This document shows positions 1 through 50,040 of a stretch of DNA of 55,249 nucleotides, one piece after another. The notes below the pieces were generated by a model that saw only the letters and a program-made list of their open reading frames with translations, was not told the DNA's origin and did not search any database. Every line of letters begins with the position of its first letter. Within the stretch, counting starts at the first letter, position 1. A program made the translations under genes and the position numbers. Source of the DNA: an uncultured Lentisphaerales bacterium (GTDB taxonomy: Bacteria; Verrucomicrobiota; Lentisphaeria; JABSQK01; UBA12247); NCBI GenBank assembly GCA_943788985.1, contig CALSSJ010000041.1, positions 1 to 55,249 of the forward strand, given 5' to 3'.

Positions 1-3000
1 GACTACCTGCGGTTCTACCTGGATGGTGAGTTGGCCGCAAGCTGGAGCGGCGAGTTGGACTGGCTCACAGTGGCCTTTTCAGTCTCTGCTGGTTTACACG
101 ACTTTCGCTGGGTCTACGAGAAAGATGTTTCAGATGCGGCCGGCGACGACCGCGCGTGGATCGATGACGTATCCTGGCCCGACCAGGGCGAATGGTCCGC
201 CCATGATACCTTTGCCGCCCCCTTGGATGCCGGACGCTGGTCCAGCAGCAATTCCGGAACGGGGAGCGCTCCCGCCAGCGCCAACGGCAGCGTCACGCTA
301 GCCACGGGCAGCAATGGTGCGAGCAGCATCACCAGCACCTCCATGCCTCAGAATGAAGGCTTGTTGGCCGCCTTTAGTTTCATTGGCGAAGGCGAGGCAC
401 ACGTGCTCTTTGAGCTACTCGATGGCCGCAGCGTCGCAGTCGAAATTGGCCCCGATCAGGCTGCCGCCGAACATTCGGGGACCGCCCGAATCGTGGGCGG
501 CCAAGATGCAGAAGACGTCTGGCCGTGGGTAGCAGGGCTGGCCACTCGCGGTGTGCAAGACGGTTTCCAAGCTCAATTCTGCGGCGGCACTCTCATTCAC
601 CCCAGCTGGGTGCTCACTGCCGCGCACTGCATCGAAGGGGTCCAGGCCGAAACTGTGGATGTCATTCTGGGCCGACGCGATCTGTCCTCCTCTGATGGAG
701 AGCGCATCCCCGTGGCAGAGATCATCCCACTCCCCGGCTACGATCCGGTTACCCTGGACCGCGATCTGGCTCTGCTGCGGCTAGAAACACCTTCCACCAT
801 CACGCCACTGCCTCTGATCACTAGCGCAGATCAATACGCACCGGGCGTCGTCGCGACGATCCTTGGCTGGGGAACACTATCGGAAGGAGGCGCTTCGCCC
901 AATCGCCTTCAAATCGCCGAAGTCCCGATCGTATCCAACGAGACCGCAAACGCCTCGCCTCTGCTCAGCGGGGTCACCGACAACATGTTCGCCGCCGGTT
1001 TCGCAAGCGGCGGGGTCGACACCTGCCAGGGCGACAGTGGTGGCCCCATCATTGTCCCTGACGGACAGTTGTGGCACCTCGCCGGCGTCACAAGCTGGGG
1101 AATCGGCTGCGCCCAGCCACAAGGCTACGGCCTCTACACGCGCATCGAGAACTTCCTGACCTGGATCAGTGACCACGTCGGCGCGCGCCAACTCACCGCG
1201 CGGCTCCTTCAGGGCGACGTCGTCCTTGCGGAGTCCGCAACCCTCAACACGAGCGCGGACGCCTTTCGAATCGCCCTGCGCACCGATGACGGCATTCGGC
1301 TCGAACAGAACGGGCTGACCATTTGGGAGGCAGAGACTGCAGCTTCCGGCACGATTACGGGACTTGCGATCTCCGCACTTTCTGATGAAGGCCCCACAAC
1401 CATCTCCCTAGACGAGGTCTCACTCTACGATGGCGCTGCCCAAGCGCCGCCTGCGGTCATCCCTGAGTTCTCGCTGCCCCGCGCGCCCATCGGCGGCCAA
1501 GTAAGCTGTGATGTCGTGCTTGTCGGGCCCACCGGCACCTATGCCGTGACCAGCGAACTGCACTACCCCTCTGCCTACCTAACACCGCTGCAGTTGCCCG
1601 CCAACATCACCCACCAAGCCCCGGGAATCCTGAGCGTGGTCATTCCCGAAGGGCACGTTGGGCCCGACCACGATCCTCGGCACCGTCTTGTTTTCCGTAT
1701 CTGCCACTGCCCCAGTCGAGGCAACCGTACAGACTGCGAACTCCGCAACCACCATCGCCGATTCGATCGAGCAAGGGTCGGCTACCCTGGCCATCATCAA
1801 CGCCGTGCCGTACGACCTATTCGAGGCACCGCTGGTCTTGGATCCGTTGAGCGGGACAGTGACCGGATCCGTAGACGGAGCCAGCGCAGAGGATAACGAG
1901 CCAACCCACACGAGCTTGGGGAAGGGCGCTTCACTCTGGTTTTCATGGACCGCACCAGCGGATGGGCACGTGTCCTTCGATACGTTCGGAAGTCTCTTCG
2001 ACACCGTTCTGGTGGCCTACCAGGGTGCATCGCCTTGGACTCCGCTCACCCCGCTCGCCGAAAACGATGACGTCTACCAGACCCTGCGCAGCCGCATTGT
2101 GCTGCCAGTAAAGGCCCGACAGAATGTCCGGATCGCCCTCGACCAGGTGTCCCAGGCCAACGCCACTTTTCAGCTACAGCACAGTTTTCGCCCCACCCTG
2201 ATCCAGGTTGGGGGCACGACCGAAGATTGGCAGGGAGCCCCGGAATACCAGTGGGAAAGCTTCGGAAATGCCCCCTGGACCGCAGATGCTGGCGCGCTGC
2301 GCAGTGGCGCTGCAGGAGACCTGGGCCTGAGCGGCATCGAAACCTACGCCGCAGTCGGTACGGGCAGCGTCGAGTTTCGGCTACGCACCAGCTCGGAATT
2401 CACCTACGACTTCTTGGTCTTCACCATAGATGACGTCATCACAGCGAAGTGGAGTGGTGAGATCGCCTGGCAAACCTATACGGCCAACGTGAGCCCTGGC
2501 CTGCATCGCTTCTCCTGGATGTACAGCAAGGACCCCAGCTTCGGTGCCTTTGAGGATGCGGTCTGGATTGATGATATCAGCCTGCCGGCCCCAGACCCGC
2601 TCCAGCTAGCACGAACTCCCGGGACGACCTGGCTACATGTCGACGAGGGGAATTCGGTGGTCGCCTCGGTGGGTGTAGAGAATCCAGTCGGACTGCTTTC
2701 CTACGAGTGGACCTACGACGGCAACTCCGTCCCCGGAGACTTGCCCACAACAACCATTTCCCCCGATTTCGATTCGATCACTCACCCTACGCTCTCCGAG
2801 ACCACAGATTTGGAATGCCATATCACCGACCTGGGCACGGGAAAAACCGCAACTCTGAGCTGGGTGGTCACGGTAAACGATCAGGATCAACCGCCTCCAA
2901 CGCCAACAATCCGCGTGGTCCCGACCGTCGCCCGCGTCGGATCTGCTGTGGTTGGTGAACTCACTCCAGCACTGGATCTGGACGGGGATGCCGTCCAATA

Positions 3001-4134
3001 CCGCTTTCGTTGGGAAGGCGCAGGCAGAACCATCGTCGGTCCCATTCTACCAGCCGGCACCGCGACCCGCGGCCAGGTCTGGCAATTTACGGTCACCCCA
3101 GAGACCTTTCCCTATGGCAACCGGGTGCAGCATGCGGGAGTCACCACCTCGGTGACCTTTGCGAACTCCGCACCAGTTATCCAGGATCAATTCATTGCGA
3201 TCTCCGCAGCTGTGACTGCACTTGCACCGGACGCCCATGATCCCGACGGAGACGCGCTCACCGTAGAGATTCTGAGCGCACCGCAGCACGGGACCTGGAA
3301 CGGCACTCACTACACGGTTGCGAACTTCGCAGCCTGGGAAGACGAGATCGTCTGGCGGGTGCGAGACACGGAAGGGGCAACCGCGAGCGCAAAGCTTACC
3401 CTGCTTCCTCGGCGGCTGGCGGCTCCCGCTGCTGGCAACCGGAGAGCAAGTGGAGATTGGTGCAGCGATCGGCGCCATCGCCGGTGTGGGCGCAGAAGAC
3501 ACGATCGCCGCGACGCCGCTGTTCGCCCAGGGCAGCGGCAGCGACCTAGACGTGGACCTGCGAGCACTTGGTGCCCCGGCAGTTTGGGAGCTGCCACTCT
3601 CAGAGACGACGGTCCTGCAATGGGACCCCGCGCTGGTTCCACCGCTCGGCCTCACAATCGGGCCCGCGCAGCTCGACATGCGTGCCGTTGCGGAGTTCGC
3701 AACCACCGAAAACGCAGTCATTACCACGACCGCGCATGAATTCGAGCTCACGCTCCACCCGGGTTGGAACTGGTGCTCCCTGCCGATTCAACCGCTGCAG
3801 CCAACCGTGAACGACCTCTTTCCAGCGGCAAGATGTGTACTGTTGGAACGACGGCTGGAAAAGGCCAGCGCTCCTCAATGCCGGGGAGGGCTTTACCGTC
3901 TTCGTGCCCGGTGAAGGCTACATAATTCAGATCTCAGGCTACGAGAACGCACTCGAGCCCAGCGGAACGGGCTGGCAACTGGTCGGCCCCACCTCGAAAC
4001 CACCCTACCAGGCGGTGCCAGCCACGGACCTAAGCGCCGATCCAGTCTGGACGGCAGCCGGCGATGCCTTTGAGCGCGCCGAAATGCTCCAACCAGGTAC
4101 AGCCTACTGGGTCTGGCGCAGCACGGCACCTTAA
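1..4134 (+). CDS. Large secreted multidomain S1A trypsin-like serine protease (5' partial; split by three apparent +1 homopolymer indels)
   Basis: Frame 1 is open from base 1 (DYLRFYLDGELAASW...). The trypsin domain (~490-1179) has R|IVGG, FCGGTLI..WVLTAAHC, DLALLRL and GVDTCQGDSGGP. Removing one base from each of the runs GGG 1651-1653, CCC 3399-3401 and TTT 3819-3821 joins ORFs 31..1896, 1658..3739, 3318..3914 and 3835..4134 into one frame of >1370 aa. It also has a duplicated 'F.ID....WSG...W....G.H.F.W.Y.KD...D.WIDD' domain, Ig-like repeats and a C-terminal GW(N/Q) domain. Confidence 0.85.
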
Positions 4135-4450: not shown

Positions 4451-4476
4451 CGATGACTTGGTGACGCCCGATGACA

Positions 4477-4667: not shown

Positions 4668-4747
4668 ATCATGCTCTGATAGTGCGACCTTGGGATCTGC
4701 CGAAGATTGCCGGGATGCCGAAGCAATACGAGCCTGGAGAAATTGAC

Positions 4748-6759: not shown

Positions 6760-7413
6760 ATGTTGCAGGCACTCACAGACCGGCTGGCTCAACATCCAAT
6801 CGCCTACGATCAATTGCGCAGGGTGATCGAGTTTAATTTTGTAGCCCTTCACCGGGCGCTGAGCGAGGCGCGAGAACGTCTAAACATTGACGACAAAGAC
6901 GGCTGGATTCTTGATCTTCCTTGCGGTACCGGAATCTTTGCAACAAATATTGAGGAGGACGCCTACGTCGGGGCGGATCTCGAGGCACTCTACGTAAGCG
7001 CTGCCCGGCGTCGGCACCCGGCACGCCATTTCCAAGTAGCGGATGGAACCGCCCTTCCCTACGCCGACGAATCGTTCCAAGGGGCCATATTAATGGGGTT
7101 TCTGCATCACCTAGATGAGCCGACTGTGGGAGCCGTGTTGGCAGAAGTGGCTCGGGTGCTACGCCCAGACGCGTGGCTAATTCTCATTGAGGACGCACCC
7201 AGCCCGGGCTTTCGTAATCCAATCGGCTGGTGTTTGCAGAAGCTCGATGTAGGAGATCACATTCGCGAAAGCGACGCCTATACGCCGCTGCTGGAGCCAG
7301 CATTTAGAGAACAGTACCGGCGCTCCTTTGCCAGTGGCTTTTGGAACTACACCATGTGGCTGGGACGTAAGCAAGATCTTGGGGACCGAGAAGCCACTCC
7401 CGCGGAGCGCTGA
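6760..7413 (+). CDS. Class I SAM-dependent methyltransferase (Methyltransf_11-like)
   Basis: Motifs ILDLPCGTG, YVGAD, ADGTALPYADESF, FLHHL and EVARVLRP. RBS GGGAG precedes the ATG. Confidence 0.85.
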   Translation: MLQALTDRLAQHPIAYDQLRRVIEFNFVALHRALSEARERLNIDDKDGWILDLPCGTGIFATNIEEDAYVGADLEALYVSAARRRHPARHFQVADGTALPYADESFQGAILMGFLHHLDEPTVGAVLAEVARVLRPDAWLILIEDAPSPGFRNPIGWCLQKLDVGDHIRESDAYTPLLEPAFREQYRRSFASGFWNYTMWLGRKQDLGDREATPAER

Positions 7414-7824
7414 ACGGAAGTTGCGAAGTCCGCAACCAGAACGGAGCGCCACGCGCGGGACAATGACTGCATCGGTCCAGAGCCGGACCTCAGACAGGGC
7501 GGCTAGGCTGCGAACGAGCGAGGACTTTCATGTGAGTAGCTCCCACGCGCCAAGTTGCACCGCCGGTCACGCCATCGACTGGCTGAAGCAGCAGAGCAAC
7601 GCGAAAAAGCGGCAGCTGCATTTTCCCGAATGCCCTACTCGGCCCATAGAGCGCACCCGACGCCTATCAGGAGCTGTATGTGTGTGCGGCCATCGAGAAT
7701 CCAGCACCAAAAACGAAGGCTGGCGTCTTCGCTATGATCAGCAACATCGATGAAAACGCCAGGGTACCCGATGGCGGGCTTTCGGATTGCCCTGTAATCG
7801 GACAAGCCCGGCTCAAATAGACGG

Positions 7825-17034: not shown

Positions 17035-18195
17035 ATGGATGTTTCCCCTACACTACCACCCGGGTTTCGGGCGGCTGGCCTGTGCTGTGGGCTCAAGGAC
17101 GACGGCGCCTTTGATCTAGGCCTGATCCTAGCAGACCAGCCCTGCACCGCTGCCGCGGTCTTTACGAGGAATCACTTCCCGGGTGCGCCTGTGCTATTAG
17201 GCCGCGAGACCATTCGCGGCGGCGTCCTGCAGGCCATCGTGGTCAACAGCAAGGTAAGCAACGTTGGCATGGGGGAACCCGGCCTCGTCAACGCCAGCCG
17301 GATGGCGCACGCCGTCGCAGAGAACTACCAAGTCGATCCTGGCCACGTTCTGGTCAGTTCGACCGGCGTGATTCTCCAGCGGTTGCCGATCTCCAAAATT
17401 GAGGCGGGAATCGCAGCCTGCGCGGACCTGCTCGGCCCCGACCCGCTGCCGGCCGCGCGCGGCATGATGACCACAGATAGCTATGCTAAGGCCGTGACTG
17501 TAAAGGCGGGCGAAGCGACGATAACCGTCCTCGCCAAGGGCGCAGGCATGGTCGCACCTGACATGGCCACCATGCTGGTCTATGCGCTTACTGATGCCAC
17601 GTTCTCGAGCTCTGAGCTTGACGCACTGCTGCGCGAGACAGTCGACCAGACCCTGAACATGCTTTCGATCGATACCGACACCAGTACCTCGGACACCTGT
17701 GCGATCCTCGCAAGTGGCCGCGTATCCGTAGACCGTACGGAGTTCGCAACTGCCCTCCACAACGCCTTCGTCCAAGTCACCGAGATGCTCGCCCGTGACG
17801 CAGAAGGAGCGACTAAGCTGCTCCGAGCAGTCGTCACCGGTGCGAACTCGGCAGCTGATGCCAAGACGTTCGCCAAGGCCTTGATCGACTCTCCCCTGAT
17901 CAAGACCATGGCCTACGGTGCCGACCCCAATGTCGGCCGGGTCTTGATGGCCATCGGCAAGTGCGTGACCTGCGAGATTGCTGCAGACGCCGTCCAGATC
18001 ACCATCAATGGCACTGTTGTCTATGGCGAAGGAAAGCGCACCGATTTCGATGAAGAGGCGATGCGCAACTCATTGAGCGGTGACCCGGTGGAGATCTCCG
18101 TGCTCGTGAACCACGGCCCTCATCAAGCAACTGCCTACGGCTGCGATCTCACGGAAAGCTACATCACCGAGAACGCAGCCTACTACTCATCCTGA
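17035..18195 (+). CDS. argJ: Bifunctional ornithine acetyltransferase/N-acetylglutamate synthase
   Basis: Motifs LP.GFRAAG, SSTGVI, MMTTD, AKGAGMVAPDMATML, DTDTSTSDT, LARDAEGATK, DPNVGR and GCDLT..YI.ENAAYYS. Confidence 0.95.
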   Translation: MDVSPTLPPGFRAAGLCCGLKDDGAFDLGLILADQPCTAAAVFTRNHFPGAPVLLGRETIRGGVLQAIVVNSKVSNVGMGEPGLVNASRMAHAVAENYQVDPGHVLVSSTGVILQRLPISKIEAGIAACADLLGPDPLPAARGMMTTDSYAKAVTVKAGEATITVLAKGAGMVAPDMATMLVYALTDATFSSSELDALLRETVDQTLNMLSIDTDTSTSDTCAILASGRVSVDRTEFATALHNAFVQVTEMLARDAEGATKLLRAVVTGANSAADAKTFAKALIDSPLIKTMAYGADPNVGRVLMAIGKCVTCEIAADAVQITINGTVVYGEGKRTDFDEEAMRNSLSGDPVEISVLVNHGPHQATAYGCDLTESYITENAAYYSS

Positions 18196-39981: not shown

Positions 39982-42900
39982 CTATTCCGGCGCGATCAGC
40001 TCGAAATCGGTCCCGGCATCGTAGATCATGTAGTATCCCTCATAGAGGGACAAGTCGGCCTCAAAGGGCACCTTCTGCCAGCTACCGCCCACGAAGCGCC
40101 AGATAATCAGAGGTGCCGGGCCAGGCCACGGGCCCGCCTGAAGCGCTCCCACCACGGCCCAGTCGCCCGCGCCAAACGCCACATCCACGGCACGGACTGG
40201 CGACGTGAAGATCGCACTTTCGCAGGGGATCGCTGAAAACGCCCAATACCCCGTTCCTGGCAGCAAAAACTCCGCATCGCCTACCGCCACCAGCCCACCA
40301 GCCGTCACCCGGTATACCGCCACCGCACAGTTGCCGAACATCGTCCCCATCGGCTGATGGGGACTGCCCGGCACGCTCATCAACTGCCAACCCGCCGCGA
40401 TCGGCACCGTGTGTTCACGCGTCTCCGCCACCAGCGAGACCGTTACCTCGTGCGACACCGCCTCACCATCCGTTGCCTGATACGTGAACGAGTCTTCGCC
40501 CGTAAATGAAGCGCCCGGCTCATAGCTAAAACTACCGTCGCTCAGCAACGTGAGCGTACCGTGCGCCACTGACGTGACTACGCTCGCCTCCAAGCCCGCA
40601 CTGTCGACATCATCATCGTTTGCCAACACGCCGGTCCCAGAGACCAGCAACTGGTTACCGTCCACGCTATAGCTGTCTTCAACCGCCACTGGCGGATCGT
40701 TGACCGCCAAGACCGTGATCGTCACCGTTGCGGAGTTGGTAAACAACCCATCCACCACCGCGTAAATGAAGACGTCCTGCCCGTTGAAATCCTGGGGAGG
40801 TGCATAGGTAAACGAGCCATCTGAGGATAGGTTCAGGGTGCCGGAAGGTTCAATTTCCACCGAATAAACCAGCCCACCTTCCAGATCTGTGTCCGCGATG
40901 GAGTCATTCAGGGTTTCATCTTCATTTGCAGTAAAGGCATCATCGCTGATTGTCGGCGGGTCATTCACGGGGCTCACCGTAAGCGACACGGTTGCGGAGT
41001 TCGCAAACAACCCATCCACCACAGCGTAGACGAACTCGTCCTGCCCGTTGAAGTCCTGAATCGGCGTATATGTAAACGAACCGTCGGACAACAGCACGAG
41101 TCCTCCCGCCGGGGCAATCTGCAGCGAATAGGTCAGCCCGCCTTCCACGTCCTCATCGGCGATCGTATCACGCAGCGTCATATCCTCTTCCAGGGTAAAT
41201 GCGTCAGCGCTTACCGTCGGCGCATCGTTGACCGGATCCACTGTAATCGTCACCGTTGCGGACTCCGCAAACTCACCGTCTATCACCGCATAGATGAACA
41301 CATCTAGCCCGTTGAAGTTCTGGGGAGGCGTGTAGCCAAATGAACCATCGGAGGAAAGATTCAGGATCCCAATAGGTTCCGTATGCACCGAATAAACCAG
41401 CCCGCCCTCAACATCCGCATCTGCAATGGAATCATTCAGGATTTCGTCCTCATCTGTCGTAAAGGCATCGTCTGTCACGGTTGGCGCATCGTTGACCGGT
41501 TCGATCGTGATTGTCACCAAGGTCGGTCCCGAACTCAGCCGTGTGTCAGTAGCGAGGTACTGAAAGCTGACCGGGGCCGTCGCGTTGAGTGCGGGCTGAT
41601 AGGTGAAGCTGCCATCTGCCAGCAACGTTAGTTCGCCGGAGTCTGGCGCCAGCTGCAGCAGCGCCTCGAGCTCATCCTCATCAATGTCGCTGTCATTGTC
41701 GAGCAGGTTGCCAAACACCGGCAAGTCTTCTATTGCCGTGAACGACTCAGCAGTCCCGACGGGCGGATCATTCACGGGTTGAATCGTAATGCTGATCAGA
41801 GCCGTGACCGAGATCTCCCCGTCCGAAATTGCATAAGAAAACGTATCCACGCCATTCTGCTCCGCCTCCGGCACGTAAGTAAATGCCCCATCTGCCGTGA
41901 GCGTAATCCTCCCAAGCGCGGGCTCGGTTGCCAGCGTTGCCTCGAATACGAGATCGTCGACATCACTATCGTTCGCCAGCAAACCATCCACAGCCGCCAC
42001 CGAGAACGCTGTGTCTTCATCGGTCAGAAAGGCGTCGCCCAACGCAATTGGCGCGTCGTTCTGCGCCACAATCGTGATCAGCACGGACCCAGCCAATGAA
42101 TCGAGCGCGCCGTCGCTTGCCAGGTACGTGAAGGTCACAGGATCCGTCTGATTGAGCGCTGGCACATAGGTGAAGGCCCCCGACGAATCCAGCTGCAACT
42201 GCCCGGTCGCGGGCGACAAAAGAACGCTGAGGCTCAGCACGTCTTGGTCGACATCGCTGTCATTCTCAGACAGGTCTCCCGCCAGCGTGCCATCTTCAAG
42301 CACCGTATAGCTGTCAGCTGCGACCACCGGCCTGTCATTCACCGCTTCGACCGTGATCGTGACTGTCGTCGTCGCCGATGCCACAGTGCCGTCGAATACC
42401 GCGTACGAAAAGACCACATCGCCGACCGCGTCTACTTCCGGCTCAAAGGTAAAACTGCCGTCCGCCTCCAGCGTCAGCGCGCCACTGCCAGGCCCGGTCC
42501 CCAGAATCGCGCTGATAGCGTCTTGGTCCAGGTCCGTGTCATTGCTCAGCACGGACCCTGCGATCGCAGTATCCTCGGCTGTGGTGAAGCTGTCTGCCAG
42601 TGCCACTGGCGGGTCATTCTGCGGCAGGATCGTCAACGTAATCGTCGCCGACGCCGAAGGTTCCGTCCCATCGGATGCCACAAACACGAAGGAGCGGGAC
42701 CCGTGATCGTTGCCCGCGGGCACATACGTGAACGCTCCAGTTGCCGCTGCCTCCAGAACGCCGCTAGCCGGTGCCGTCAAGACCATCAGAGCCAGCGCAT
42801 CACCATCGACATCATCGGCCCCAGCCAGAGCGCCCGGGGCAGGGACAACCAGAGTTGTATCCTCTAGGAGGGTGTAGGTCGCGTCGATCACCGTTGGCGA

Positions 42901-45900
42901 GTCGTTGACCGGCGTGATGGTAATCACGACGGTTGCGGAGTTCGCAGCACCACTGGGGTCGGTGATGCGATACACAAACTGGTCTGGCCCGTTGGCGTCC
43001 GCGTGCGGTTCGTAGCTGAATGCCCCGTCGGCAGCCAGCGACAGCGAACCTTGAGCCGGCGGCGTTACGCTCGCGACCAGCAAACCATCGCCATCCACGT
43101 CATTGTCATTGTCCGTGAGATTTCCACTCCACAGGCCATCTTCGTCCACGGTGAAGGCATCCGCACCAGCCTGAGGCGCGTCATTGACGGGCAGCACCGT
43201 GATCGTCACCGTAGTCGTGGCGCTCAGTTCGCCATCGCTCACGGTCGCCGTCAACTCAAACGGTCCGTGCGCATCGGCAGGCGGATCAAACGTAAACGTC
43301 CCAGCCACCGACTGGCTCGCTACCCCCGCGACAATGCCAAATTCAAGCGTTGCCGAGTCAATATCCTGCGCAAACGCTGCGAGGTCCGCACTCAGCAGCT
43401 GATCCTCGTCGGTGATGAAGGCGGGAGCCTGCAAAAACACCGGCGCGTCGTTCACGGGCTCGATCACAATCGACACCTCGCCGGTATCGCTAAGCGCCCC
43501 ATCCGAAACCGTGTAGCTGAAGGCCACGTCCGCATTCGCATCCGCGGCTGGCGCGTAGGTAAAAGTCCCATCGCTCGCCACCTCCAGTGTGCCAGTTGCT
43601 GGCGCGACCAGCACCTCGAAACTCAGCACGGGGGAATCAACATCCCCGTCATTGGCCCCCAGCGCGACACCGGCAGAGGGCGTCAGCAGCCCATCCTCGC
43701 TCATCGTGTAGCTATCTGGCTCGGCCACCGGAGCGTCGGCCACCGCGCTGATCGAGAGCCGCACGGTCGCAAGAGAAGAATTCAGCTGCCCATCAGTGGC
43801 CTGGTAACTGAAGCTGTCCTCGCCATAAGCGTTCGCAGTCGGCTCAAACGTAAAGGTACCATCCGCTGCGAGCGTGAGTTCGCCAAGGCTCGGTGGCACC
43901 AGCAACGTTGCCGCTAGCTCATCGCCATCGGGATCGTCGTCGTTCAACAGAATCGAGGGCGCCTCCAGAACCACGTCTTCGGTCAGGGTAAAGGCGTCGT
44001 CTTCCGCGGTTGGAAGGTCATTATTGCCGCCCACCACAATCGTGACGCTGGCAGTCCGGTCGAACTCCCCGTCACTCACCGTGTACACGAATGACACCTG
44101 GCCATCGAAGTTCGCAGCCGGTTCGTAGGTGAAGGCACCAGATGCGGCCAGAGTGAGCGTGCCCTCCACCGGCTCAGTCTGTACCGTGGTCGCCAAGGCG
44201 TCATCCTCGACATCATCGTCATTCGACAGAACCCCCGCTTCCGCGGTCACAAAAAGCGTCGTATCCTCCTGCGTCAGGTAGGCATCGGCAAACGGCGTCG
44301 GGGCATCGTTAATCGGCTCGACGACCAAACCGATGATCACAGCTGCGGACTGCGCAAGCCCGTCATCCACCGTGGCCGTAAACGCGTCCGCACCGGCAAA
44401 ATCAGCGTCTGGCACGTAAGTAAAGGCCCCGTCCGCGGCGATCGTGAGCGTCCCGTGCGTCGGCTGCGTCGCCTGCGGCAGCAGTGAGTCGCCATCCACA
44501 TCCGTGGCCAGCGCCAGCAGCCCGGCTCCCGCGCCCACCTCCAGCGTCGCATCCTCGTTCACCGAAAACGCCAACGCCACAGCCACCGGCGCATCGTTCT
44601 CTGCCGTAATCGTCAGCGTGACCGTAGCCGTACGCGAGAGCTGCCCGTCGCTGCAGCTGTAGCTGAAGAAAACCTCGCCGTTCACGTTCTCAGCGGGGAC
44701 ATAGGTAAAGGCACCGTCCGCCACGAGCGTAAGGGTGCCAGTCGCTGGCTCGCTCAGGACCGTCGCCGTCAGCCCATCCCCGTCCACATCATCATCGTTT
44801 GCCAACACACCGCTGACCGCCGGGACCGACACCGTTTCGTCCTCCACCAGCGAGTACGCATCCGGCTGCGGAGCTGGCGGGTCGTTGACGGGAATCCCCA
44901 CCAACGTCACAACCCCCGTCGTGGCGCTGGTCCCATCGTGGGCTGCATAGACAAAGCTGTCCGCGGCATTTTCCTGCGCGTCCGGCGTGTAGGTAAAGGC
45001 ACCATCGGCCAGCAAGGTCAGCTGCCCCGCTGCCGGAGATTGCACCACCTGCGCCGTCAGCCCGACGCTGTCGATATCGCTGTCATTGGCCAACGGCCCC
45101 GCAACGGCAACCACAAGCGCCGTATCTTCCGTAAACGTGTAGCTGTCTGCCATCGTCACCGGAGCGTCATCGGCGGCATTGATCGTGATCGTAAGGATCG
45201 CGTGATTTCCCACCGTCAGTCCGTCGCTTGCCTGGTACGTGAACAGCGCTGTACCGCTCGCGTTGTCTGTCGGAATAAACAAAAATGAGCCGTCGGCGCT
45301 CAGCGACAGCTGTCCGAGGCTATGATTAGCGTTACTGGTGAGCACCGCAAACAGACCAGGCCCATCCACATCTACATCATTGTCCAAAACCCCACCGGCG
45401 AGCGCCGCGATGCTGAGCGTCTCATCCTCGCCCGTCTCATAGGCGTCATTCTCCGAAATCGGCGGGTCATTCAACGCGGTCACCGTCACCGTCACGACCA
45501 CCGACTCCGAGGCAGCTGCGCCGTCGTGCGTCTGGTAGCTGAAGCTAAACACTCCGGCTTGTTCCGCAGCTGGGACAAAGGTGAAGCTACCATCCGCCAG
45601 CAACGTCAGCTCGCCCGTGGCCGGTGCCGTCAGCAGTTGTGCCTGAAGCTCCGGCGAATCGATATCGCTATCGTTCTCCAGGACGCCTGGGGCCGTAACC
45701 GTGAGAGTCGCATCCTCATCCAGCTCCCATTCGTCGGCCACGGCCACCGGCGCATCGTTCTCTGCCGTCACCGTGAGCGTCACCAACTGCGTCACCGATA
45801 CCGTGCCATCGCTCAGCGAGTAGCTGAACTGATCCGAGCCTGCGAAGTTCGCAACCGGCGTGTAGGTAAACGCCCCACTGGCCAGCAACGTCACCGCCCC

Positions 45901-48900
45901 ATGCGCCGGATCCCCCAGCACCGCCGTCTCCAGCGGGTCCAAATCCACGTCACTGTCGTTCGCCTGCAGGTCATCGCTCACGCTGCCGTCTTCCACCAGC
46001 ACGTAGTTATCAAGTAGCGCGACCGGCGCGTCATTGACCGGCAGAATCACAAACGCCACCGTGCGCACCGGCGAATTCAACGCCCCATCCGTCGCGCGAT
46101 AGCTGAAGCTGTCGTTCCCAGTCGCATCGGCTACTGGGACGTAGCTGAGCGCGCCAGACGCCGTGAACGTCAGCTGCCCCGCCGGCATCGTCAGCGCCAC
46201 AAAGCTCAGTTCGTCCCCGTCCGGGTCCTCATCGTTGGCCAGCGGACCTGGCGGCGCGAGCACCAGCTCAGTATCTTCATCCAAGGTATAGCTGTCGGCC
46301 GTTGCTTCCGGCGAATCCGCCCGCGGGTTCACCGTAATCGTCACCAGCGCCGTCACCGTCGTCCCCCCGTCCGTCACGCTGTAGGCGAACACATCCTCGC
46401 CAAAGAAATTCGCCACCGGCGTATACGTGTAGGCGCCGGATGCCTCCACCACAATCTCAGCCGTTGCGGACTCCGCAAAAAGCGCAGCCACCAAGGCATC
46501 CCCATCCGGATCAGAATCATTCGCCAGCAGCCCGTTTGCCTCGCCGCGGATGAGCGTCGCATCCTCATCCAGCGTTGCGGAGTCCGCAACTGCCACAGGC
46601 GGATCTGGCTGCGCGATGATCGCAATCGTCGCCGTCGTCGTCACGCTGAACTCCCCATCGCTGACTTGATAGGTAAACACCACGCCATCGGTTCGGTGCT
46701 CACTAGGAGTCAAGGTGAAGGCTCCCGAGCCATCCAACACCAGATTCCCATGCGCCGGCTGATTCAGCGCCGTGTACACCAGCCCGGCGCTGTCGATATC
46801 CTGATCCGGCGCCACGCTGTCCACCAGCTGCATGTCTTCGACCACCGTAAACGCATCGGCAATGGCCACCGGCGGGTCATTGACCGGCTCGATCGTAATC
46901 GTCACCGTTGCGGAGTCCGCAATCCCGCCGTCCACGACGGAATAGATGAACACATCCTCACCGTTGAAATCCGCCACCGGCGCGTAGGTGAAAGTACCAT
47001 CAGAGGAAAGGATAAGGGTTCCAAAAGGTTCCGTATGCACTGAATACACCAGCCCACCTTCGAGATCTTCATCCGCAATGGAGTCGTTCAGGGTTTCATC
47101 TTCATCGATCGTAAAGGCGACGTCGGTAACCGTGGGCGGGTCATTCACCGGCTCGATCGTAATCGTCACCGTTGCGGAGTCCGCAAACTCCCCGTCGAAG
47201 ACCCGATAGAGAAAGCTGTAGCTGCCGGATTGGTCGCTGGGGGCGAGAAAGGTGTAGGCCCCGGTCTCAGCGAAAGTGAGAGCGCCAGCAACCGGATCCG
47301 AGAGCTTGATAAAGGTAAGGCCACCTTCAGGGTCGAAATCGTTGCTGGCTACGGAGTTGACGAGCAGGATGTCTTCCTCGCCGGTGTGGGAGTCGGCGAC
47401 AGCCTGCGGCGGGTCGTTCTCTGGCGTGAACGTGAAGGTGACCGTTGCGGAGTCCACAAACTCTTCGTCTGCAATCCGATACAGAAAGGAGTCTGAGCCA
47501 TCGAAGTGCAGGTTGGGCTGGTAGGCAAAGTTGCCATCGGCAAAAATGAGCGTGCCATTGGTGGGTTCGCTGAGCTTGGTGACCACCAGCGCGCTGTCCG
47601 GATCGACGTCGTTATCGACCACGCTGCCCGCGATCGGCTGGTCTTCCAGAGCCGTGTAGCTGTCATCCACGGCGTCCGGCGGGTCGTTTTGTGGGGTAAG
47701 CGTGATCGTCACCAGCCCGGTCAGGCTGTGCGCGCCGTCAGTCACGCGGTAGCTGAAGGAGATGTCACCGGTGACATTCTCCGCCGGATTATAGGTGAAG
47801 CTACCGTCTGCGATCAGCTCGACCGCGCCTGACGGCGGATCTAGCTCGACAGCATAGCTAAGGCCGCCTTCGACGTCTGCATCGGCGACGGATCCGCTTG
47901 CTGGCGTATCCTCGAGCACAGTGAAGGTATCGTTCGTGATCACGGGCGCGTCGTTCACCGGGTCAATCTGGATCGTGAGAGTCGAGGTGATGGTGAAGCT
48001 GCCATCGGAAATGCTGTAGTGAACCGTCTCGTTGCCGAACAGATTCTCGCTGGGCGTGTAGCTAAAGCCGCCCGTGGTGTCCACCACCAGCGTTCCCAAC
48101 GTGGTGGCCGACGCGCTGTAGACGAGCGCCCCGTGCTGGTCGTCGGTATCGTTCGTGGCCAGCGAGCCGGAGACAGGCTGATCTTCGTCGGTGGTCACGC
48201 TGTCCGCCACGGCCACGGCAGGATCATTGACCGGGCTGATGCTGAGACTGACAGTGTTGCTGACAGTGTACTCGACGTCTGAGACGGCATAGCGGAAGCT
48301 GTCCGCGCCGTTGAAATCCCCGTCTGGCTCGTAGGTAAAGGAGCCGTCTGCCAGCAAAGTGAGCGTGCCGGAACCAGGGCCTTCCACCACGCTGTGAGTG
48401 AGTACGGCCGTGTCGAGATCAGAAGAGGGCAGGGTGCCAGACACTGGCTCATCCTCAGACGTTGTCACGCTCAAAGCCTCTGCCAGCGGCGGATCGTTCA
48501 CCGGGTCCACCTGCATGGTAAGTGCTGCGCTGACGGTATGCTCAGTGTCGGTCACGGTGTAGAGCAGCTGCTCGAGCCCAGTCGCATTCTCGTTCGGGGT
48601 GTAAGTGAAGCTGCCATCCGGCAACAAGACCACCGAACCAAATGCCGCCGGCGTGACGCTGATGTAGAGAAGCCCACCTTCCACATCGAAGTCGTTGGCG
48701 GAGAGGTCGCCCGGGAGCGGGGTGTCTTCCGCGGTGGTATAGCTGTCGGCGGTCAGCTCGGGAACATCGTTTACGGGCGACATGGTGATGGTGGCGGTTG
48801 CGGAGACCGAAACCATCTCATCGCTGACCGAGTAGGTGAGGAAGACGGTGTCAGTCGCGTTCTCAACAGGCACGTAAGTGAGCGAACCGTCTGCCTCAAA

Positions 48901-50040
48901 CGTGAATGAGCCGGTCGCGGGGCCAAGCACAAGGCTGGCCGAGAGCGAGTCGAGGTCGACATCGGAGTCGTTCGCCAGCAAGTCGGCAAACAAGACGGAA
49001 TCCTCGGGAAAGGTGATGGACTCGCCGACTACCGTCGGGGGATCATTCACCGGCGTGATCGTGATGGTAACGGTTGCGGAGTCCGCAAGATCGGTGTCGC
49101 TGACCGAGTAGCTGAAGCTGACCTCGCCATTGTCGTTTTCCGCGGGTGTGTAGGTGAACGCACCGGACGGGAGCAGCGTCAGGTCTCCCCGTGGTGGCGG
49201 GGTAACGACAGAGACGGTCAGCACGTCGCCTTCGTCTGGATCTGCGTCATTCGCCAGAACGTCATCAGAAACCGCAGTGTCCTCGTCGGTGGTATAACCG
49301 TCCGCTGTAGCCTGGGGCGGGTCGTTCACCGGGGTGATGGTGATGGTCACAGTGCTGGTGGCGGAGAGATTGCCATCATCTGCTGCGTAGATAAAGCTGA
49401 TCTCGCCGGCAGCATTCAGCGGCGGGCTAAAGGTGAAGGAGCCGTCGGCGGCAACCGTGGCAGTGCCGGTAGCGGGGGCAGTGGCCAGCGACGCGGTCAT
49501 CGGGTCGGTATCGACGTCGTTATCCAGCAGCCCGGGGGCCGCGACGAAGAGCTCGGTGTCTTCGGCGATGGTGTAGCTGTCCGGGTTTGCGGTTGGTGGG
49601 CCATTCACATTCCAGGTCAACGACGCGGCCGTGATGCCGTGAGTCGCCCGATCTAGAGTCGGCAGGAAGTCGTCCGCGTTCGGCGCGCCACTGCCCACAG
49701 TTGCGACGGCGTAGGGCGTCACCTGGCTCAGCACCAGGGTAATAGGCGTGACGCCGCTCAGCTCGCCTAGCTGAATCACCCCAACAAAGTAGCCGCTCGC
49801 CGCTTCATCCAGGCCGGATAGGTCTGCGGTAGTAATGATCTGGTCGGCACCGTTGCGCACTTCCGCGGTGTAATTTGCGAGGTTCGCAGCGGTGAGCAGG
49901 GCATCCGTGTGGTCCAACGCGGGCGCACCCGCCGAGCCAAGCTCGAGCCAGATGATGTCCGCCAGCGCTGGCATGGCCAGAAGCAGCGCCAGCCCCAACA
50001 GGCGCCACCCGCGGAGCCGCGTTCGACCAGGGTCAGTCAT
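39982..50040 (-). CDS. Giant secreted adhesin-like protein with ~33 tandem cadherin-like/Big_9 (tandem-95) repeats
   Basis: Intact 3352-aa ORF with a signal peptide. I count about 33 'P(V)ND(A/P)P.A..D.Y...ED' units, each with 'L..ND.D.D' and 'G.F.Y.P..N..G.D.F.Y'. A C-terminal GWQ domain follows. Confidence 0.93.
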   Translation of the reverse strand: MTDPGRTRLRGWRLLGLALLLAMPALADIIWLELGSAGAPALDHTDALLTAANLANYTAEVRNGADQIITTADLSGLDEAASGYFVGVIQLGELSGVTPITLVLSQVTPYAVATVGSGAPNADDFLPTLDRATHGITAASLTWNVNGPPTANPDSYTIAEDTELFVAAPGLLDNDVDTDPMTASLATAPATGTATVAADGSFTFSPPLNAAGEISFIYAADDGNLSATSTVTITITPVNDPPQATADGYTTDEDTAVSDDVLANDADPDEGDVLTVSVVTPPPRGDLTLLPSGAFTYTPAENDNGEVSFSYSVSDTDLADSATVTITITPVNDPPTVVGESITFPEDSVLFADLLANDSDVDLDSLSASLVLGPATGSFTFEADGSLTYVPVENATDTVFLTYSVSDEMVSVSATATITMSPVNDVPELTADSYTTAEDTPLPGDLSANDFDVEGGLLYISVTPAAFGSVVLLPDGSFTYTPNENATGLEQLLYTVTDTEHTVSAALTMQVDPVNDPPLAEALSVTTSEDEPVSGTLPSSDLDTAVLTHSVVEGPGSGTLTLLADGSFTYEPDGDFNGADSFRYAVSDVEYTVSNTVSLSISPVNDPAVAVADSVTTDEDQPVSGSLATNDTDDQHGALVYSASATTLGTLVVDTTGGFSYTPSENLFGNETVHYSISDGSFTITSTLTIQIDPVNDAPVITNDTFTVLEDTPASGSVADADVEGGLSYAVELDPPSGAVELIADGSFTYNPAENVTGDISFSYRVTDGAHSLTGLVTITLTPQNDPPDAVDDSYTALEDQPIAGSVVDNDVDPDSALVVTKLSEPTNGTLIFADGNFAYQPNLHFDGSDSFLYRIADEEFVDSATVTFTFTPENDPPQAVADSHTGEEDILLVNSVASNDFDPEGGLTFIKLSDPVAGALTFAETGAYTFLAPSDQSGSYSFLYRVFDGEFADSATVTITIEPVNDPPTVTDVAFTIDEDETLNDSIADEDLEGGLVYSVHTEPFGTLILSSDGTFTYAPVADFNGEDVFIYSVVDGGIADSATVTITIEPVNDPPVAIADAFTVVEDMQLVDSVAPDQDIDSAGLVYTALNQPAHGNLVLDGSGAFTLTPSEHRTDGVVFTYQVSDGEFSVTTTATIAIIAQPDPPVAVADSATLDEDATLIRGEANGLLANDSDPDGDALVAALFAESATAEIVVEASGAYTYTPVANFFGEDVFAYSVTDGGTTVTALVTITVNPRADSPEATADSYTLDEDTELVLAPPGPLANDEDPDGDELSFVALTMPAGQLTFTASGALSYVPVADATGNDSFSYRATDGALNSPVRTVAFVILPVNDAPVALLDNYVLVEDGSVSDDLQANDSDVDLDPLETAVLGDPAHGAVTLLASGAFTYTPVANFAGSDQFSYSLSDGTVSVTQLVTLTVTAENDAPVAVADEWELDEDATLTVTAPGVLENDSDIDSPELQAQLLTAPATGELTLLADGSFTFVPAAEQAGVFSFSYQTHDGAAASESVVVTVTVTALNDPPISENDAYETGEDETLSIAALAGGVLDNDVDVDGPGLFAVLTSNANHSLGQLSLSADGSFLFIPTDNASGTALFTYQASDGLTVGNHAILTITINAADDAPVTMADSYTFTEDTALVVAVAGPLANDSDIDSVGLTAQVVQSPAAGQLTLLADGAFTYTPDAQENAADSFVYAAHDGTSATTGVVTLVGIPVNDPPAPQPDAYSLVEDETVSVPAVSGVLANDDDVDGDGLTATVLSEPATGTLTLVADGAFTYVPAENVNGEVFFSYSCSDGQLSRTATVTLTITAENDAPVAVALAFSVNEDATLEVGAGAGLLALATDVDGDSLLPQATQPTHGTLTIAADGAFTYVPDADFAGADAFTATVDDGLAQSAAVIIGLVVEPINDAPTPFADAYLTQEDTTLFVTAEAGVLSNDDDVEDDALATTVQTEPVEGTLTLAASGAFTYEPAANFDGQVSFVYTVSDGEFDRTASVTIVVGGNNDLPTAEDDAFTLTEDVVLEAPSILLNDDDPDGDELAATLLVPPSLGELTLAADGTFTFEPTANAYGEDSFSYQATDGQLNSSLATVRLSISAVADAPVAEPDSYTMSEDGLLTPSAGVALGANDGDVDSPVLSFEVLVAPATGTLEVASDGTFTYAPAADANADVAFSYTVSDGALSDTGEVSIVIEPVNDAPVFLQAPAFITDEDQLLSADLAAFAQDIDSATLEFGIVAGVASQSVAGTFTFDPPADAHGPFELTATVSDGELSATTTVTITVLPVNDAPQAGADAFTVDEDGLWSGNLTDNDNDVDGDGLLVASVTPPAQGSLSLAADGAFSYEPHADANGPDQFVYRITDPSGAANSATVVITITPVNDSPTVIDATYTLLEDTTLVVPAPGALAGADDVDGDALALMVLTAPASGVLEAAATGAFTYVPAGNDHGSRSFVFVASDGTEPSASATITLTILPQNDPPVALADSFTTAEDTAIAGSVLSNDTDLDQDAISAILGTGPGSGALTLEADGSFTFEPEVDAVGDVVFSYAVFDGTVASATTTVTITVEAVNDRPVVAADSYTVLEDGTLAGDLSENDSDVDQDVLSLSVLLSPATGQLQLDSSGAFTYVPALNQTDPVTFTYLASDGALDSLAGSVLITIVAQNDAPIALGDAFLTDEDTAFSVAAVDGLLANDSDVDDLVFEATLATEPALGRITLTADGAFTYVPEAEQNGVDTFSYAISDGEISVTALISITIQPVNDPPVGTAESFTAIEDLPVFGNLLDNDSDIDEDELEALLQLAPDSGELTLLADGSFTYQPALNATAPVSFQYLATDTRLSSGPTLVTITIEPVNDAPTVTDDAFTTDEDEILNDSIADADVEGGLVYSVHTEPIGILNLSSDGSFGYTPPQNFNGLDVFIYAVIDGEFAESATVTITVDPVNDAPTVSADAFTLEEDMTLRDTIADEDVEGGLTYSLQIAPAGGLVLLSDGSFTYTPIQDFNGQDEFVYAVVDGLFANSATVSLTVSPVNDPPTISDDAFTANEDETLNDSIADTDLEGGLVYSVEIEPSGTLNLSSDGSFTYAPPQDFNGQDVFIYAVVDGLFTNSATVTITVLAVNDPPVAVEDSYSVDGNQLLVSGTGVLANDDDVDSAGLEASVVTSVAHGTLTLLSDGSFSYEPGASFTGEDSFTYQATDGEAVSHEVTVSLVAETREHTVPIAAGWQLMSVPGSPHQPMGTMFGNCAVAVYRVTAGGLVAVGDAEFLLPGTGYWAFSAIPCESAIFTSPVRAVDVAFGAGDWAVVGALQAGPWPGPAPLIIWRFVGGSWQKVPFEADLSLYEGYYMIYDAGTDFELIAPE

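Follow-up and report, generated by a model that had tools for sequence, protein, structure and literature searches.

To our knowledge few DNA words that are hyper-abundant throughout a lineage have been described (DUS, USS, HIP1 and Chi/KOPS), and each of them has opened a view on DNA uptake, repair or chromosome handling. The DUS of Neisseriaceae and the USS of Pasteurellaceae are non-palindromic, come in family-level "dialects", and are recognized either by the pilin ComP or by a receptor that is not known. According to work by Redfield and co-workers and by Frye et al., these words of at least 9 bp reportedly distort peptide frequencies and are explained by drive instead of selection on each site. 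Other short DNA sites are bound by chromosome-organizing proteins: MatP binds matS, with about 23 sites in the terminus domain of enterobacteria, SlmA binds SBS and Noc binds NBS, all three being read by dimers, and we know of no MatP outside Enterobacterales and Vibrionales. Palindromes of the REP/REPIN/MITE type are 20-40+ nt long and spread through RAYT transposases. HIP1 in cyanobacteria is, in two published accounts, an iterated palindrome common to a large clade that is neither a peptide nor an RNA motif (PMC5861425; PMC4390886), and the first of these describes it as hyper-abundant inside ORFs and conserved, and argues that it is selected and tied to nucleoid structure (PMC5861425). It has now been proposed, in PMC13756078 and bioRxiv 10.1101/2024.09.10.611283, to act as a clade-wide uptake or "self" tag.

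Here we describe an iterated palindrome in a 55,249-nt stretch of DNA (the window) that looks like an undescribed counterpart of the Neisseria/Haemophilus uptake sequences and of cyanobacterial HIP1. Full-text literature searches found no published description of the motif, in line with the original prediction that the signal might be a new one. Taken jointly, that this is a DNA-level palindrome, shared across a clade, arising by substitution and persisting where it is tolerated, we regard as nearly certain. What the motif does is a question we approach more tentatively.

Results

The window holds 18 exact copies of TGCGRASTYCGCA (Table 1), or about one per 3 kb. Across 100 shuffles that preserve dinucleotides the mean was 0.02, and no shuffle had more than 1; with up to one mismatch allowed there are 27 matches against 0.42 expected. 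The original prediction had located the same 18 copies, had put the chance expectation far below one match and had named seven near-copies, and we recover all of these together with two further near-copies in argJ. The fuller consensus is K-TTGCGRASTYCGCAA-M with the core GCGRASTYCGC; the longer form TTGCGGANTCCGCAA is present at seven of the exact copies and TTGCGAANTTCGCAA at one, and the information content of the motif is about 24 bits. Internal variation is common only at position 5 (G/A) and position 9 (C/T), with 23 G to 13 A among the half-sites. The central base is S in 18 of 18 copies and W in none, so that the codons GAG, GAC and AAC are used and GAA, GAT and AAT never are. The motif has sharp edges: GGANTCC occurs 30 times in the window, 10 of these read CGGANTCCG, 8 read GCGGANTCCGC, and all 8 are TGCGGANTCCGCA. 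The inner GGANTCC alone is not enriched, with 20 of the 30 falling outside the motif. Nor is GANTC, a CcrM/HinfI-type site, part of every copy: GASTC is present in the 8 GGA..TCC copies only, and the other 10 copies, in which position 5 is A or position 9 is T, are without it.

Table 1. Host genes and copies of the palindrome in the window
Feature	Coordinates	Strand	Context
Trypsin/Big_9 gene	1-3914	+	Reads as three ORFs; five exact copies
ORF	27738-29312	-	No Pfam family; one exact copy
ORF	29297-31969	-	Signal peptide; sub-threshold DUF6250 match, 24.1 bits vs cutoff 26.9
ORF	36918-39050	-	One exact copy; F-A-E-S-A-S
3352-aa cadherin-like gene	39982-50040	-	Nine exact copies
Exact copy TGCGGAGTCCGCA	1227..1239	gene +	L-A-E-S-A-T, trypsin/Big_9 gene
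Exact copy TGCGAACTCCGCA	1735..1747		T-A-N-S-A-T, trypsin/Big_9 gene, second frame segment
Exact copy TGCGAACTCCGCA	3160..3172		F-A-N-S-A-P, trypsin/Big_9 gene
Exact copy TGCGAACTTCGCA	3319..3331		V-A-N-F-A-A, trypsin/Big_9 gene
Exact copy TGCGGAGTTCGCA	3689..3701		V-A-E-F-A-T, trypsin/Big_9 gene, third frame segment
Exact copy TGCGAAGTCCGCA	7422..7434		Intergenic; begins 9 nt past final stop-codon base (7411-7413) of 6760-7413
Exact copy	28947..28959		F-A-N-F-A-S, ORF 27738-29312 (-)
Exact copy, other frame	31636..31648		C-E-L-R, ORF 29297-31969 (-)
Exact copy	37491..37503		F-A-E-S-A-S, ORF 36918-39050 (-)
Exact copy	40993..41005		F-A-N-S-A-T-V-S-L-T; repeat position directly before ..PVND, 3352-aa gene (-)
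Exact copy	41257..41269		F-A-E-S-A-T-V-T-I-T; repeat position as 40993, 3352-aa gene
Exact copy	42934..42946		A-A-N-S-A-T-V-V-I-T; repeat position as 40993, 3352-aa gene
Exact copy	45841..45853		V-A-N-F-A-G; other repeat position, 3352-aa gene
Exact copy	46465..46477		F-A-E-S-A-T-A-E; other repeat position, 3352-aa gene
Exact copy	46576..46588		V-A-D-S-A-T-L-D; other repeat position, 3352-aa gene
Exact copy	46909..46921		I-A-D-S-A-T-V-T-I-T; repeat position as 41257, 3352-aa gene
Exact copy	47173..47185		F-A-D-S-A-T-V-T-I-T; repeat position as 41257, 3352-aa gene
Exact copy	49075..49087		L-A-D-S-A-T-V-T-I-T; repeat position as 41257, 3352-aa gene
One-mismatch copy TGCGATCTCCGCA	1365..1377		A-I-S-A; identical variant at 3196-3208 and 15390-15402 (surE)
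One-mismatch copy	17736..17748		argJ
One-mismatch copy	17841..17853		argJ; A-N-S-A with TCG instead of TCC
One-mismatch copies	43378..43390, 44344-44356, 47446-47458, 49876-49888		3352-aa gene

Seventeen of the 18 copies are coding and are spread over five genes. The remaining copy is the only one in the non-coding 12% of the window, so intergenic DNA shows no enrichment, although the sample is small; it follows a gene for a class I SAM methyltransferase, and we rejected it as a terminator because there is no T-run downstream. The five host genes had been described beforehand as unrelated. Their number stands, but two of them share Big_9/cadherin-like domains, and the copies are clumped, with 14 of the 18 in these two genes. 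Exact copies are absent between 7434 and 28947, a 21.5-kb gap over core and sulfatase genes that has P ~0.003 under uniform placement and ~0.02 with repeat copies collapsed. The gap agrees with the earlier remark that neither the core genes nor the sulfatase cluster has an exact copy; the core genes surE and argJ hold near-copies only, three against about 0.06 expected for that stretch. Within the 3352-aa gene, six of the nine copies occupy one protein-repeat position, ..A[DEN]SATV.IT..PVND, so that the window has 13 or more independent sites, not 18. In the six paralogous repeats concerned the motif codons are invariant and the flanking T/V/P codons vary, a comparison that is circular since the repeats were chosen by the motif.

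The two frame changes in the trypsin/Big_9 gene lie about 75 and 100 nt from the nearest copies, and we found no link between them and the motif. A homologue search with the ORF at 36918-39050 found none at E<=1e-10; atlas matches for this ORF, TPR-like and with Verrucomicrobiota or Planctomycetota the commonest sources, score below 0.9 and are no more than leads.

The signal resides in DNA rather than in protein. By 1000 synonymous-codon shuffles the shuffled genes should have about 0.07 copies but have 16; with the 3352-aa gene removed, the expectation is about 0.04 and the count 7 (the raw means of 2.07 and 2.04 include two unshuffled sites). The original prediction was to be given up if the enrichment vanished from this comparison on collapsing the repeats of the 3352-aa gene; it survives removal of the whole gene. 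In genes of either orientation, all but one of the 17 coding copies read xxT-GCG-RAS-TYC-GCA in the sense direction. These 16 encode A[EDN][SF]A, the copy at 31636 encodes CELR and that at 7422 is intergenic, which bears out the two reading frames and single intergenic copy seen at the outset. Conversely, 16 of the 18 A[EDN][SF]A peptides in the window are written exactly T-GCG-RAS-TYC-GCA, the preceding wobble T included, a codon string expected in fewer than 1% of such peptides (the codon-family shares are 32% for GCG, 19% for TCC and 20% for GCA). The peptide itself is about 5-fold over-represented, at 18 against 3.4 +/- 1.8 expected, so the motif shapes protein sequence, as had been supposed. 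That duplication of protein repeats cannot alone explain the copies was also rightly argued, given the shuffles, the peptide-codon counts and the intergenic and CELR-frame copies.

The motif is common to the source organism and to many Lentisphaeria, Victivallales, Kiritimatiellota and Verrucomicrobiota genomes of any G+C. A scan of genome contigs with the 15-mer returned at least 115 loci, which we assigned to lineages by record title (the window itself is not among the loci listed), and at least 53 of them are titled as MAGs of these four groups. At least 21 PVC genomes carry the motif, at least 12 of which gave two or more loci, and the G+C of these motif-bearing genomes runs from 0.36 to 0.71. 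Among the loci listed, extra exact copies are found in Lentisphaeria-type PVC loci and, as a single abutting pair, in a locus of Planctomycetota; the matches listed from other non-PVC loci show none; this distribution supports the predicted lineage specificity. The 38 listed loci with Lentisphaer- or Victivallales titles (220 kb) contain 6 extra exact and 33 one-mismatch copies and one Kiritimatiellota MAG (30 kb) contains 5 and 7, while the controls, 53 listed loci that belong neither to the PVC group nor to Reyranella (308 kb), contain 0 and 2. A MAG of 36% GC (MAG179, 27.7 kb) has twelve exact 15-mers, some of them tightly clustered (3 within 190 bp, 4 within 1.3 kb); two lie in its EPSP synthase gene (aroA), three in a radical-SAM/B12 ORF, one per frame, and three in a U32 peptidase ORF as C-[EG]-[LV]-R. 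In two MAGs the density is one copy per 4-7 kb. An alphaproteobacterial element that contains the 15-mer matched no family in an Rfam scan of 3 of the 8 loci sharing it. The ArgJ of the window has a best relative that is 73% identical, and matches of 55-61% span several phyla; it is 41% identical to the single Lentisphaeria ArgJ among the loci listed, at the top of the 26-41% tblastn range against these loci.

Copies arise by base substitution within existing genes, not by insertion. When AroA is aligned to solved AroA structures, the motif replaces residues and there is no 15-bp insertion; this replacement, with the coding location of 17 of 18 copies, led us to reject a REP/MITE-like insertion element. 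The CELR site at 31636 lies in a variable stretch, and homologues with 53% and 39% identity do not have it. Two MAGs have one site in common, but at 91% identity they are too close to inform on conservation. Copies persist mainly where the peptide is tolerated, in the frame [FLIV]-A-[E/D/N]-[S/F]-A-[T/K/N..] and in variable, beta-rich or poorly conserved segments, and this persistence gives the motif a footprint in the proteome.

Discussion

The TTGCG half-sites are 10 bp apart centre to centre and each independently tolerates R. Such half-sites would lie on one face of the helix, which together with their spacing and independent tolerance of R makes reading by a dimer probable, and we picture a clade-conserved symmetric dimer that acts on double-stranded DNA. 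With presumably hundreds to thousands of sites of this specificity, selection at each site against the cost to the protein seems implausible, so a drive is the most likely cause of accumulation. Among such drives the best documented favors tag-bearing DNA in uptake and recombination, as for DUS/USS and as recently proposed for HIP1, and we speculate that in the exchange or repair of DNA the motif may mark "self-DNA" throughout the clade. As a whole statement, an iterated clade-wide palindrome with an uptake or self-tag function, we offer this by analogy and tentatively, giving it less than an even chance. That K-TTGCGRASTYCGCAA-M is specifically a class- to phylum-wide self tag, whose putative dimeric reader would decide what DNA the cell takes up, recombines or spares, we consider somewhat unlikely. 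If true, this would be the first palindromic uptake or self-recognition sequence of at least 13 bp, and the first such system beyond Proteobacteria and cyanobacteria, and its effect would be strong enough to alter residues even in housekeeping enzymes, AroA for one. Several observations count against an uptake tag. A palindrome does not have the asymmetric core of DUS/USS, and its copies are clumped into two genes and interrupted by the 21.5-kb gap, whereas USS are spread more evenly along the genome. A drive with protein cost as its sole filter should moreover favor intergenic DNA, where, in a small sample, we see one copy of 18. As a possible part of a competence apparatus the window offers only a pseudopilin-like gene, whose score is under the family cut-off.

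It is also possible, but in our estimation unlikely, that the motif is bound by an abundant protein of the chromosome-organizing or nucleoid-occlusion type, an HTH or RHH dimer that would structure or position the chromosome and whose sites selection would maintain. The motif is a palindrome of 13-15 bp, its half-sites are separated by one turn of the helix and vary independently (R/Y), and matS and the sites of SlmA and Noc are built in this way too. The clumping in the window and the tight clusters in MAG179 would suit cooperative binding, and an identical motif at 36-71% GC suggests a conserved reader. HIP1 is a precedent for selection and a nucleoid link, as argued in one account (PMC5861425). 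However, selection per single site should be too weak to overwrite enzyme residues as in AroA, the single testable site (CELR) is not kept in the homologue of 53% identity, and we identified no candidate binding protein. The densities in the window and in the two MAGs are also 10-20 times those of matS, NBS and SBS.

Another model, which we think quite unlikely, is that a functionless motif is left as a by-product of sequence-specific biased repair or gene conversion, in which a very-short-patch-like system with a methyltransferase or nicking enzyme would turn near-matches into matches. Copies do arise by point substitution, and the clade has a large halo of one-mismatch copies: among the loci listed, those of Lentisphaeria type have 33 in 220 kb and the controls 2 in 308 kb. 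The G/A and C/T transition polymorphism is what would remain if a methylated C at position 9 were deaminated, and with R=G and Y=C the center of the motif is GASTC, a subset of GANTC. But the over-represented unit is the whole 13-15-mer and not the inner GGANTCC, whereas known methyltransferase/Vsr sites are 4-8 bp; the window has no DNA methyltransferase or Vsr gene, the gene at 6760-7413 matching small-molecule class I families; and intergenic DNA is not enriched.

An RNA-level hairpin (6-bp stem, 3-nt loop) that affects the stability, processing or translation of mRNAs is very improbable. Folded as single-stranded DNA, the 15-mer gives -5.3 kcal/mol and its variants -4.1 to -4.8, which are modest energies, and 17 of 18 copies are transcribed within ORFs. 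But genes on both strands carry the motif equally and one copy is intergenic, five of the six imperfect coding copies would have an A.C mismatch in the mRNA and just the sixth the G.U wobble that pairing in RNA should prefer, the outer and central bases are constrained though a hairpin needs neither, and the stem sequence is fixed with no compensatory variation. Hardly credible, finally, is an artefact of protein or codon usage, whereby a common Ig-like repeat peptide was duplicated with its repeats and written in favored codons: it would account for the shared repeat position of six giant-gene copies and for the 14 copies in two genes with Big_9/cadherin-like domains, but it is refuted by the synonymous shuffle outside the giant gene, the single codon string in 16 of 18 peptides, the intergenic and CELR-frame copies, the other peptides found at that position in giant-gene repeats without the motif, the nine copies that lie in varied contexts outside the repeat gene (which also dismiss the Big_9/cadherin-like tandem repeat as sole cause), and the unrelated enzymes of other genomes (aroA, radical-SAM and peptidase genes), where the motif occupies all three frames.

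Whatever its function, the motif is an unusually long, specific and palindromic word that spans 36% to 71% G+C and measurably bends protein sequences, in a host clade (Lentisphaeria and relatives) that is poorly studied and mostly uncultured. It provides a concrete oligonucleotide for pull-downs, a marker to assign contigs to the clade and spot foreign DNA in these genomes, and a second, independent case in which to test HIP1-like palindromes as clade-wide uptake or self tags.

Comparison with known systems

REP/REPIN/MITE elements are likewise short palindromes with hundreds of copies and the capacity to form hairpins, but they are intergenic and inserted, whereas the motif described here lies within ORFs in all but one of its copies in the window and replaces residues. 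It shares with matS (GTGACRNYGTCAC, as quoted in the original prediction) the form of a 13-bp palindrome with symmetric R..Y degeneracy and a free center. It is not matS, however, as it differs from that consensus at fixed positions, and its density of one per 3 kb in the window is far too high for matS. The uptake sequences of Neisseriaceae (DUS) and Pasteurellaceae (USS) are likewise specific, occur about once per 1-3 kb, are mostly genic and sit in tolerated frames or segments, and the 18 copies in 55 kb, the one frame of 16 of 17 coding copies and the 5-fold peptide enrichment match this pattern. DUS/USS are non-palindromic, unlike the motif, and DUS often forms inverted pairs in terminators, whereas a single copy here is intergenic. 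Full-text searches for competence in the Lentisphaeria-type clade found nothing.

HIP1 (GCGATCGC) is 8 bp long and of unrelated sequence, whereas our motif has 13-15 bp, an odd center and R/Y degeneracy and belongs to PVC bacteria rather than cyanobacteria. HIP1 holds the GATC and CGATCG sites of the methylases DmtA and DmtC, whereas no DNA methylase is seen in this window. The sites of HIP1 are reported to be conserved between orthologues; the single site that could be compared here is absent at 53% identity. The ten most frequent 8-bp palindromes in the window, a ranking that reaches down to 4 copies, do not include HIP1. Like HIP1, however, the motif is palindromic, hyper-abundant beyond codon-aware expectation, located mostly in ORFs and clade-wide, and two marks of a HIP1-type word, over-representation against a codon-aware null and presence throughout a clade whatever the genome composition, are both found here.

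The iterated palindrome in the window

The original prediction had placed 18 matches to TGCGRASTYCGCA in this DNA and judged them far beyond chance. All 18 are present in the 55,249-base window at the predicted positions; across 100 shuffles that preserved dinucleotides, the mean count was 0.02 and the maximum 1. Allowing up to one mismatch raises the count in the window to 27 sites, against 0.42 expected, and pieces of the motif dominate the window's commonest 8- to 13-mers. Its edges are sharp: in a k-mer census of the window, GGANTCC occurs 30 times, 10 of them as CGGANTCCG and 8 as GCGGANTCCGC, and all 8 of the latter set are TGCGGANTCCGCA, with TTGCGGANTCCGCAA at 7. In the flanks, T is preferred at -1 (0.81) and either G or T at -2, the opposite flank mirrors both, and no preference extends beyond -2 and its mirror position. 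The consensus is therefore K-TTGCGRASTYCGCAA-M. At the R position the half-sites vary independently: GGA..TCC accounts for 8 copies and GAA..TTC for 3, the other 7 being mixed, so that 23 half-sites have G and 13 have A. The centre base is S in 18 of 18 exact copies, and W in none of the nine one-mismatch copies in the window. One such variant, TGCGATCTCCGCA, encoding A-I-S-A, is found three times, once in surE; it is perhaps a sub-variant that is tolerated.

Features of the window and the exact motif copies they hold (gene placement by Pfam and NCBIfam)
Feature	Position	Strand	Exact copies
Trypsin-domain/Big_9 gene	1-3914	+	5
One-mismatch variant TGCGATCTCCGCA	1365-1377
One-mismatch variant TGCGATCTCCGCA	3196-3208
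One-mismatch variant TGCGATCTCCGCA	15390-15402
AAA_14/DUF4143 ATPase gene	4682-6058	+
SAM methyltransferase gene	6760-7413	+
Sole intergenic copy, starting 9 nt past the methyltransferase stop codon	7422		1
Stretch without exact copy	7434-28947		0
Gene of no secure family	27738-29312	-	1
Gene of no secure family, sub-threshold DUF6250 match only	29297-31969	-	1
Gene of no secure family	36918-39050	-	1
Giant gene (3352-aa protein, 33 Cadherin_4/Big_9/Cadherin_5 repeats)	39982-50040	-	9
Glycine-zipper small protein	50085-50612
tRNA-Arg(TCT)	50652-50727

The signal resides in the nucleotides and distorts the proteome. Sixteen of the 17 coding copies, on either gene strand, read along their own gene as xxT-GCG-RAS-TYC-GCA, giving A-[E/D/N]-[S/F]-A; the other, at 31636, supplies the predicted second frame as C-E-L-R, in an ORF that opens with a plausible signal peptide. 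When synonymous codons were shuffled within each gene 1000 times, ~0.07 copies were expected and 16 observed in the shuffled genes, and without the giant gene, which the prediction had named as its refuting test, 7 were observed against ~0.04. (The raw means, 2.07 and 2.04, include two unshuffled sites, the intergenic copy and 31636, whose gene overlaps its neighbour and was left out.) Moreover, the window has 18 A[EDN][SF]A peptides and the exact palindrome encodes 16 of them, down to the wobble T in the codon before, yet GCG, TCC and GCA make up only 32%, 19% and 20% of their codon families. The excess outside the giant gene and this single codon string show that the pattern is no by-product of a protein repeat; together with the other frame and the intergenic copy, they agree with the earlier denial that repeat duplication could be the sole cause. 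Protein sequence is shaped too, as had been proposed: residue shuffling of the proteins leaves 3.4 +/- 1.8 A[EDN][SF]A peptides where 18 occur. Of the giant gene's nine copies, six occupy one repeat position (..[FLIA]-A-[DEN]-S-A-T-V-x-[IL]-T..PVND), so we count independent sites as at least 13; giant-gene repeats that lack the motif have other peptides there.

As predicted, exact copies are missing from the core and sulfatase genes. The stretch without them (P ~0.003 under uniform placement) contains lolD-like, exbB/tolQ-like, surE, argJ, two sulfatase genes and rpe; surE and argJ together carry three one-mismatch copies. The best relative of this ArgJ is 73% identical, named matches from several phyla reach 55-61%, and the sole Lentisphaeria ArgJ among the scan loci listed is 41% identical. 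No T-run follows the intergenic copy, and the gene before it encodes a small-molecule-type class I SAM methyltransferase; this gene and the ATPase gene separate two motif-rich regions. The trypsin-domain/Big_9 gene runs through three frames, passing from frame 1 into that of ORF 1658-3739 at ~1655-1665 and into that of ORF 3318-3914 at ~3405-3425, and each ORF's tail is Arg-rich nonsense; these are either two assembly indel errors or a decaying gene. The 710-aa product of 36918-39050 has a signal-peptide-like start and a helical-repeat look. It had no homologue at E<=1e-10 among 8000 scored candidates, and its Atlas hits (below 0.9, TPR-like) are leads only, weakly toward Verrucomicrobiota or Planctomycetota. 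At higher coordinates the giant gene is followed by the glycine-zipper protein and then the tRNA.

Occurrence in other genomes

A scan of TTGCGGAGTCCGCAA against a genome collection of 185,579 species returned at least 115 loci, where simple arithmetic gives a chance expectation of ~0.01 per genome. By record title, which is not phylogeny, the 115 loci listed comprise 38 from Lentisphaeria/Lentisphaerae/Victivallales, 4 from one Kiritimatiellota MAG, 7 from MAG179 (a MAG of 36% G+C titled 'Verrucomicrobiota'), 4 from other Verrucomicrobiota/Opitutae, 3 from Planctomycetota, 6 from Reyranella and 53 scattered over other phyla; none of these loci is the window itself. At least 12 Lentisphaeria-type genomes have two or more loci, and one has at least nine. 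Extra copies in the DNA surrounding the scan seeds served as an internal control, and they favour the lineage-specific signal that had been proposed: the 38 Lentisphaeria/Lentisphaerae/Victivallales loci listed (220 kb) hold 6 further exact 13-mers and 33 one-mismatch copies, whereas the 53 scattered loci listed (308 kb) hold 0 and 2. The Kiritimatiellota loci listed (30 kb) add 5 and 7, those of MAG179 carry twelve exact 15-mers in 27.7 kb, and the six Reyranella loci listed have none extra. Outside the Lentisphaeria/Lentisphaerae/Victivallales, Kiritimatiellota and MAG179 groups, the sole second copy among the matches listed belongs to an abutting 15-mer pair in a Planctomycetota MAG (locus L108, 302-331, starts 302 and 317; A-E-S-A-I-A-D-S-A-I). 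Carriers among the scan loci listed span a G+C of 0.36-0.71. Their commonest deviation is C/G replacing the outermost T/A, which leaves GCGRASTYCGC as the core, and five centre-W variants among the carrier loci listed make the central S a strong preference and no absolute rule.

The motif is not an adhesin feature, being found also in EPSP synthase, radical-SAM, peptidase and glycoside-hydrolase ORFs. In MAG179, whose A+T-rich genome makes ORF calls safe, EPSP synthase (AroA) has two copies and a radical-SAM/B12-binding ORF three, one per frame. A U32 peptidase ORF has three more in its C-terminal part, all read as C-[EG]-[LV]-R. The peptidase copies fall inside 190 bp (L047, 863-1049), and four copies lie inside 1.3 kb within and beside the radical-SAM ORF (L094, 302-1605). 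High-GC relatives, with frames from a longest-open-frame heuristic, have the motif in glycoside-hydrolase, CBM, pectate-lyase-like and other large ORFs.

Eight loci (L005, L027, L034, L042, L051, L061, L080, L106) have in common a segment of ~65-150 nt with the 15-mer inside it; they come from Reyranella, Asaia and other alphaproteobacterial MAGs. Over this segment seven of the loci match one another at 92-99% identity and L061 at 75-77%. No Rfam family was found in the three scanned, and the segment is a phenomenon distinct from the motif of the PVC group. Loci L004, L038 and L109, from one Acidoferrales MAG, are copies of one gene (99.7-99.9% identical, peptide KPLTIADSATIILG), a repeated element and no motif enrichment.

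Origin and possible function

Aligned to solved AroA structures, both MAG179 copies replace residues, one with a single-residue indel adjoining the conserved ..KTFP.. block, and the alignment rules out a 15-bp insertion as the origin of either. In the window, the C-E-L-R copy occupies a variable stretch directly ahead of a conserved GWEIFE block and is missing from the sole two homologues found (53% and 39% identity). It follows from the AroA replacements and this absence that copies are made by substitution, turn over at that timescale and are placed where proteins tolerate them. In its preferred frame the 15-mer reads [FLIV]-A-[ED]-S-A-[T/N/K/S/R/I/M], a benign, beta-strand-like peptide. This may be why beta-rich surface proteins have an excess of copies and core enzymes have near-copies alone.

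The motif is thus a clade-wide, DNA-level palindromic word, gained through substitutions that run counter to codon preference and carry some cost to proteins. Its TTGCG half-sites have a centre-to-centre spacing of 10 bp and degenerate independently, which would suit the operator geometry of symmetric dimers, and a putative dimeric reader would have to be conserved among genomes that differ widely in composition. Hundreds to thousands of ~24-bit copies probably accumulate by drive, because so many such words are hard to keep singly by selection. Among drives that act on long words, biased uptake with recombination is the best documented, as with DUS and USS. This argument and the analogy with HIP1, DUS and USS lead us to rank first, tentatively, a self-DNA or uptake-type tag; HIP1 has recently been proposed as a phylum-wide uptake sequence (PMC13756078). 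Against such a tag stand the palindromic form, unlike DUS or USS, the clumped distribution in the window and the lack of enrichment in intergenic DNA, which makes up 12% of the window and has 1 of the 18 copies. A chromosome-organising binding site, ranked second, seems to us a less probable reading; for HIP1, Xu et al. favour selection and a nucleoid role instead (PMC5861425). Biased repair tied to modification comes third and is doubtful. An RNA hairpin is unlikely, because five of six imperfect coding copies would pair A.C and not G.U in mRNA and the stem sequence is fixed, without covariation.

Comparison with known systems

In open-access full text, nothing relevant turned up on the motif sequence, nor on uptake sequences or iterated palindromes of Lentisphaerae, Verrucomicrobia or Victivallales. 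The motif departs from matS in consensus and density, does not classify as a REP or MITE element and does not behave as GANTC. It lacks the asymmetry by which DUS and USS are defined, and any part of it in DNA uptake would be putative. HIP1, of which methylases are a defining feature, is the closest palindromic analogue, although the two differ in sequence, length and clade. In behaviour the motif resembles HIP1 and the uptake sequences, but it belongs to neither family.
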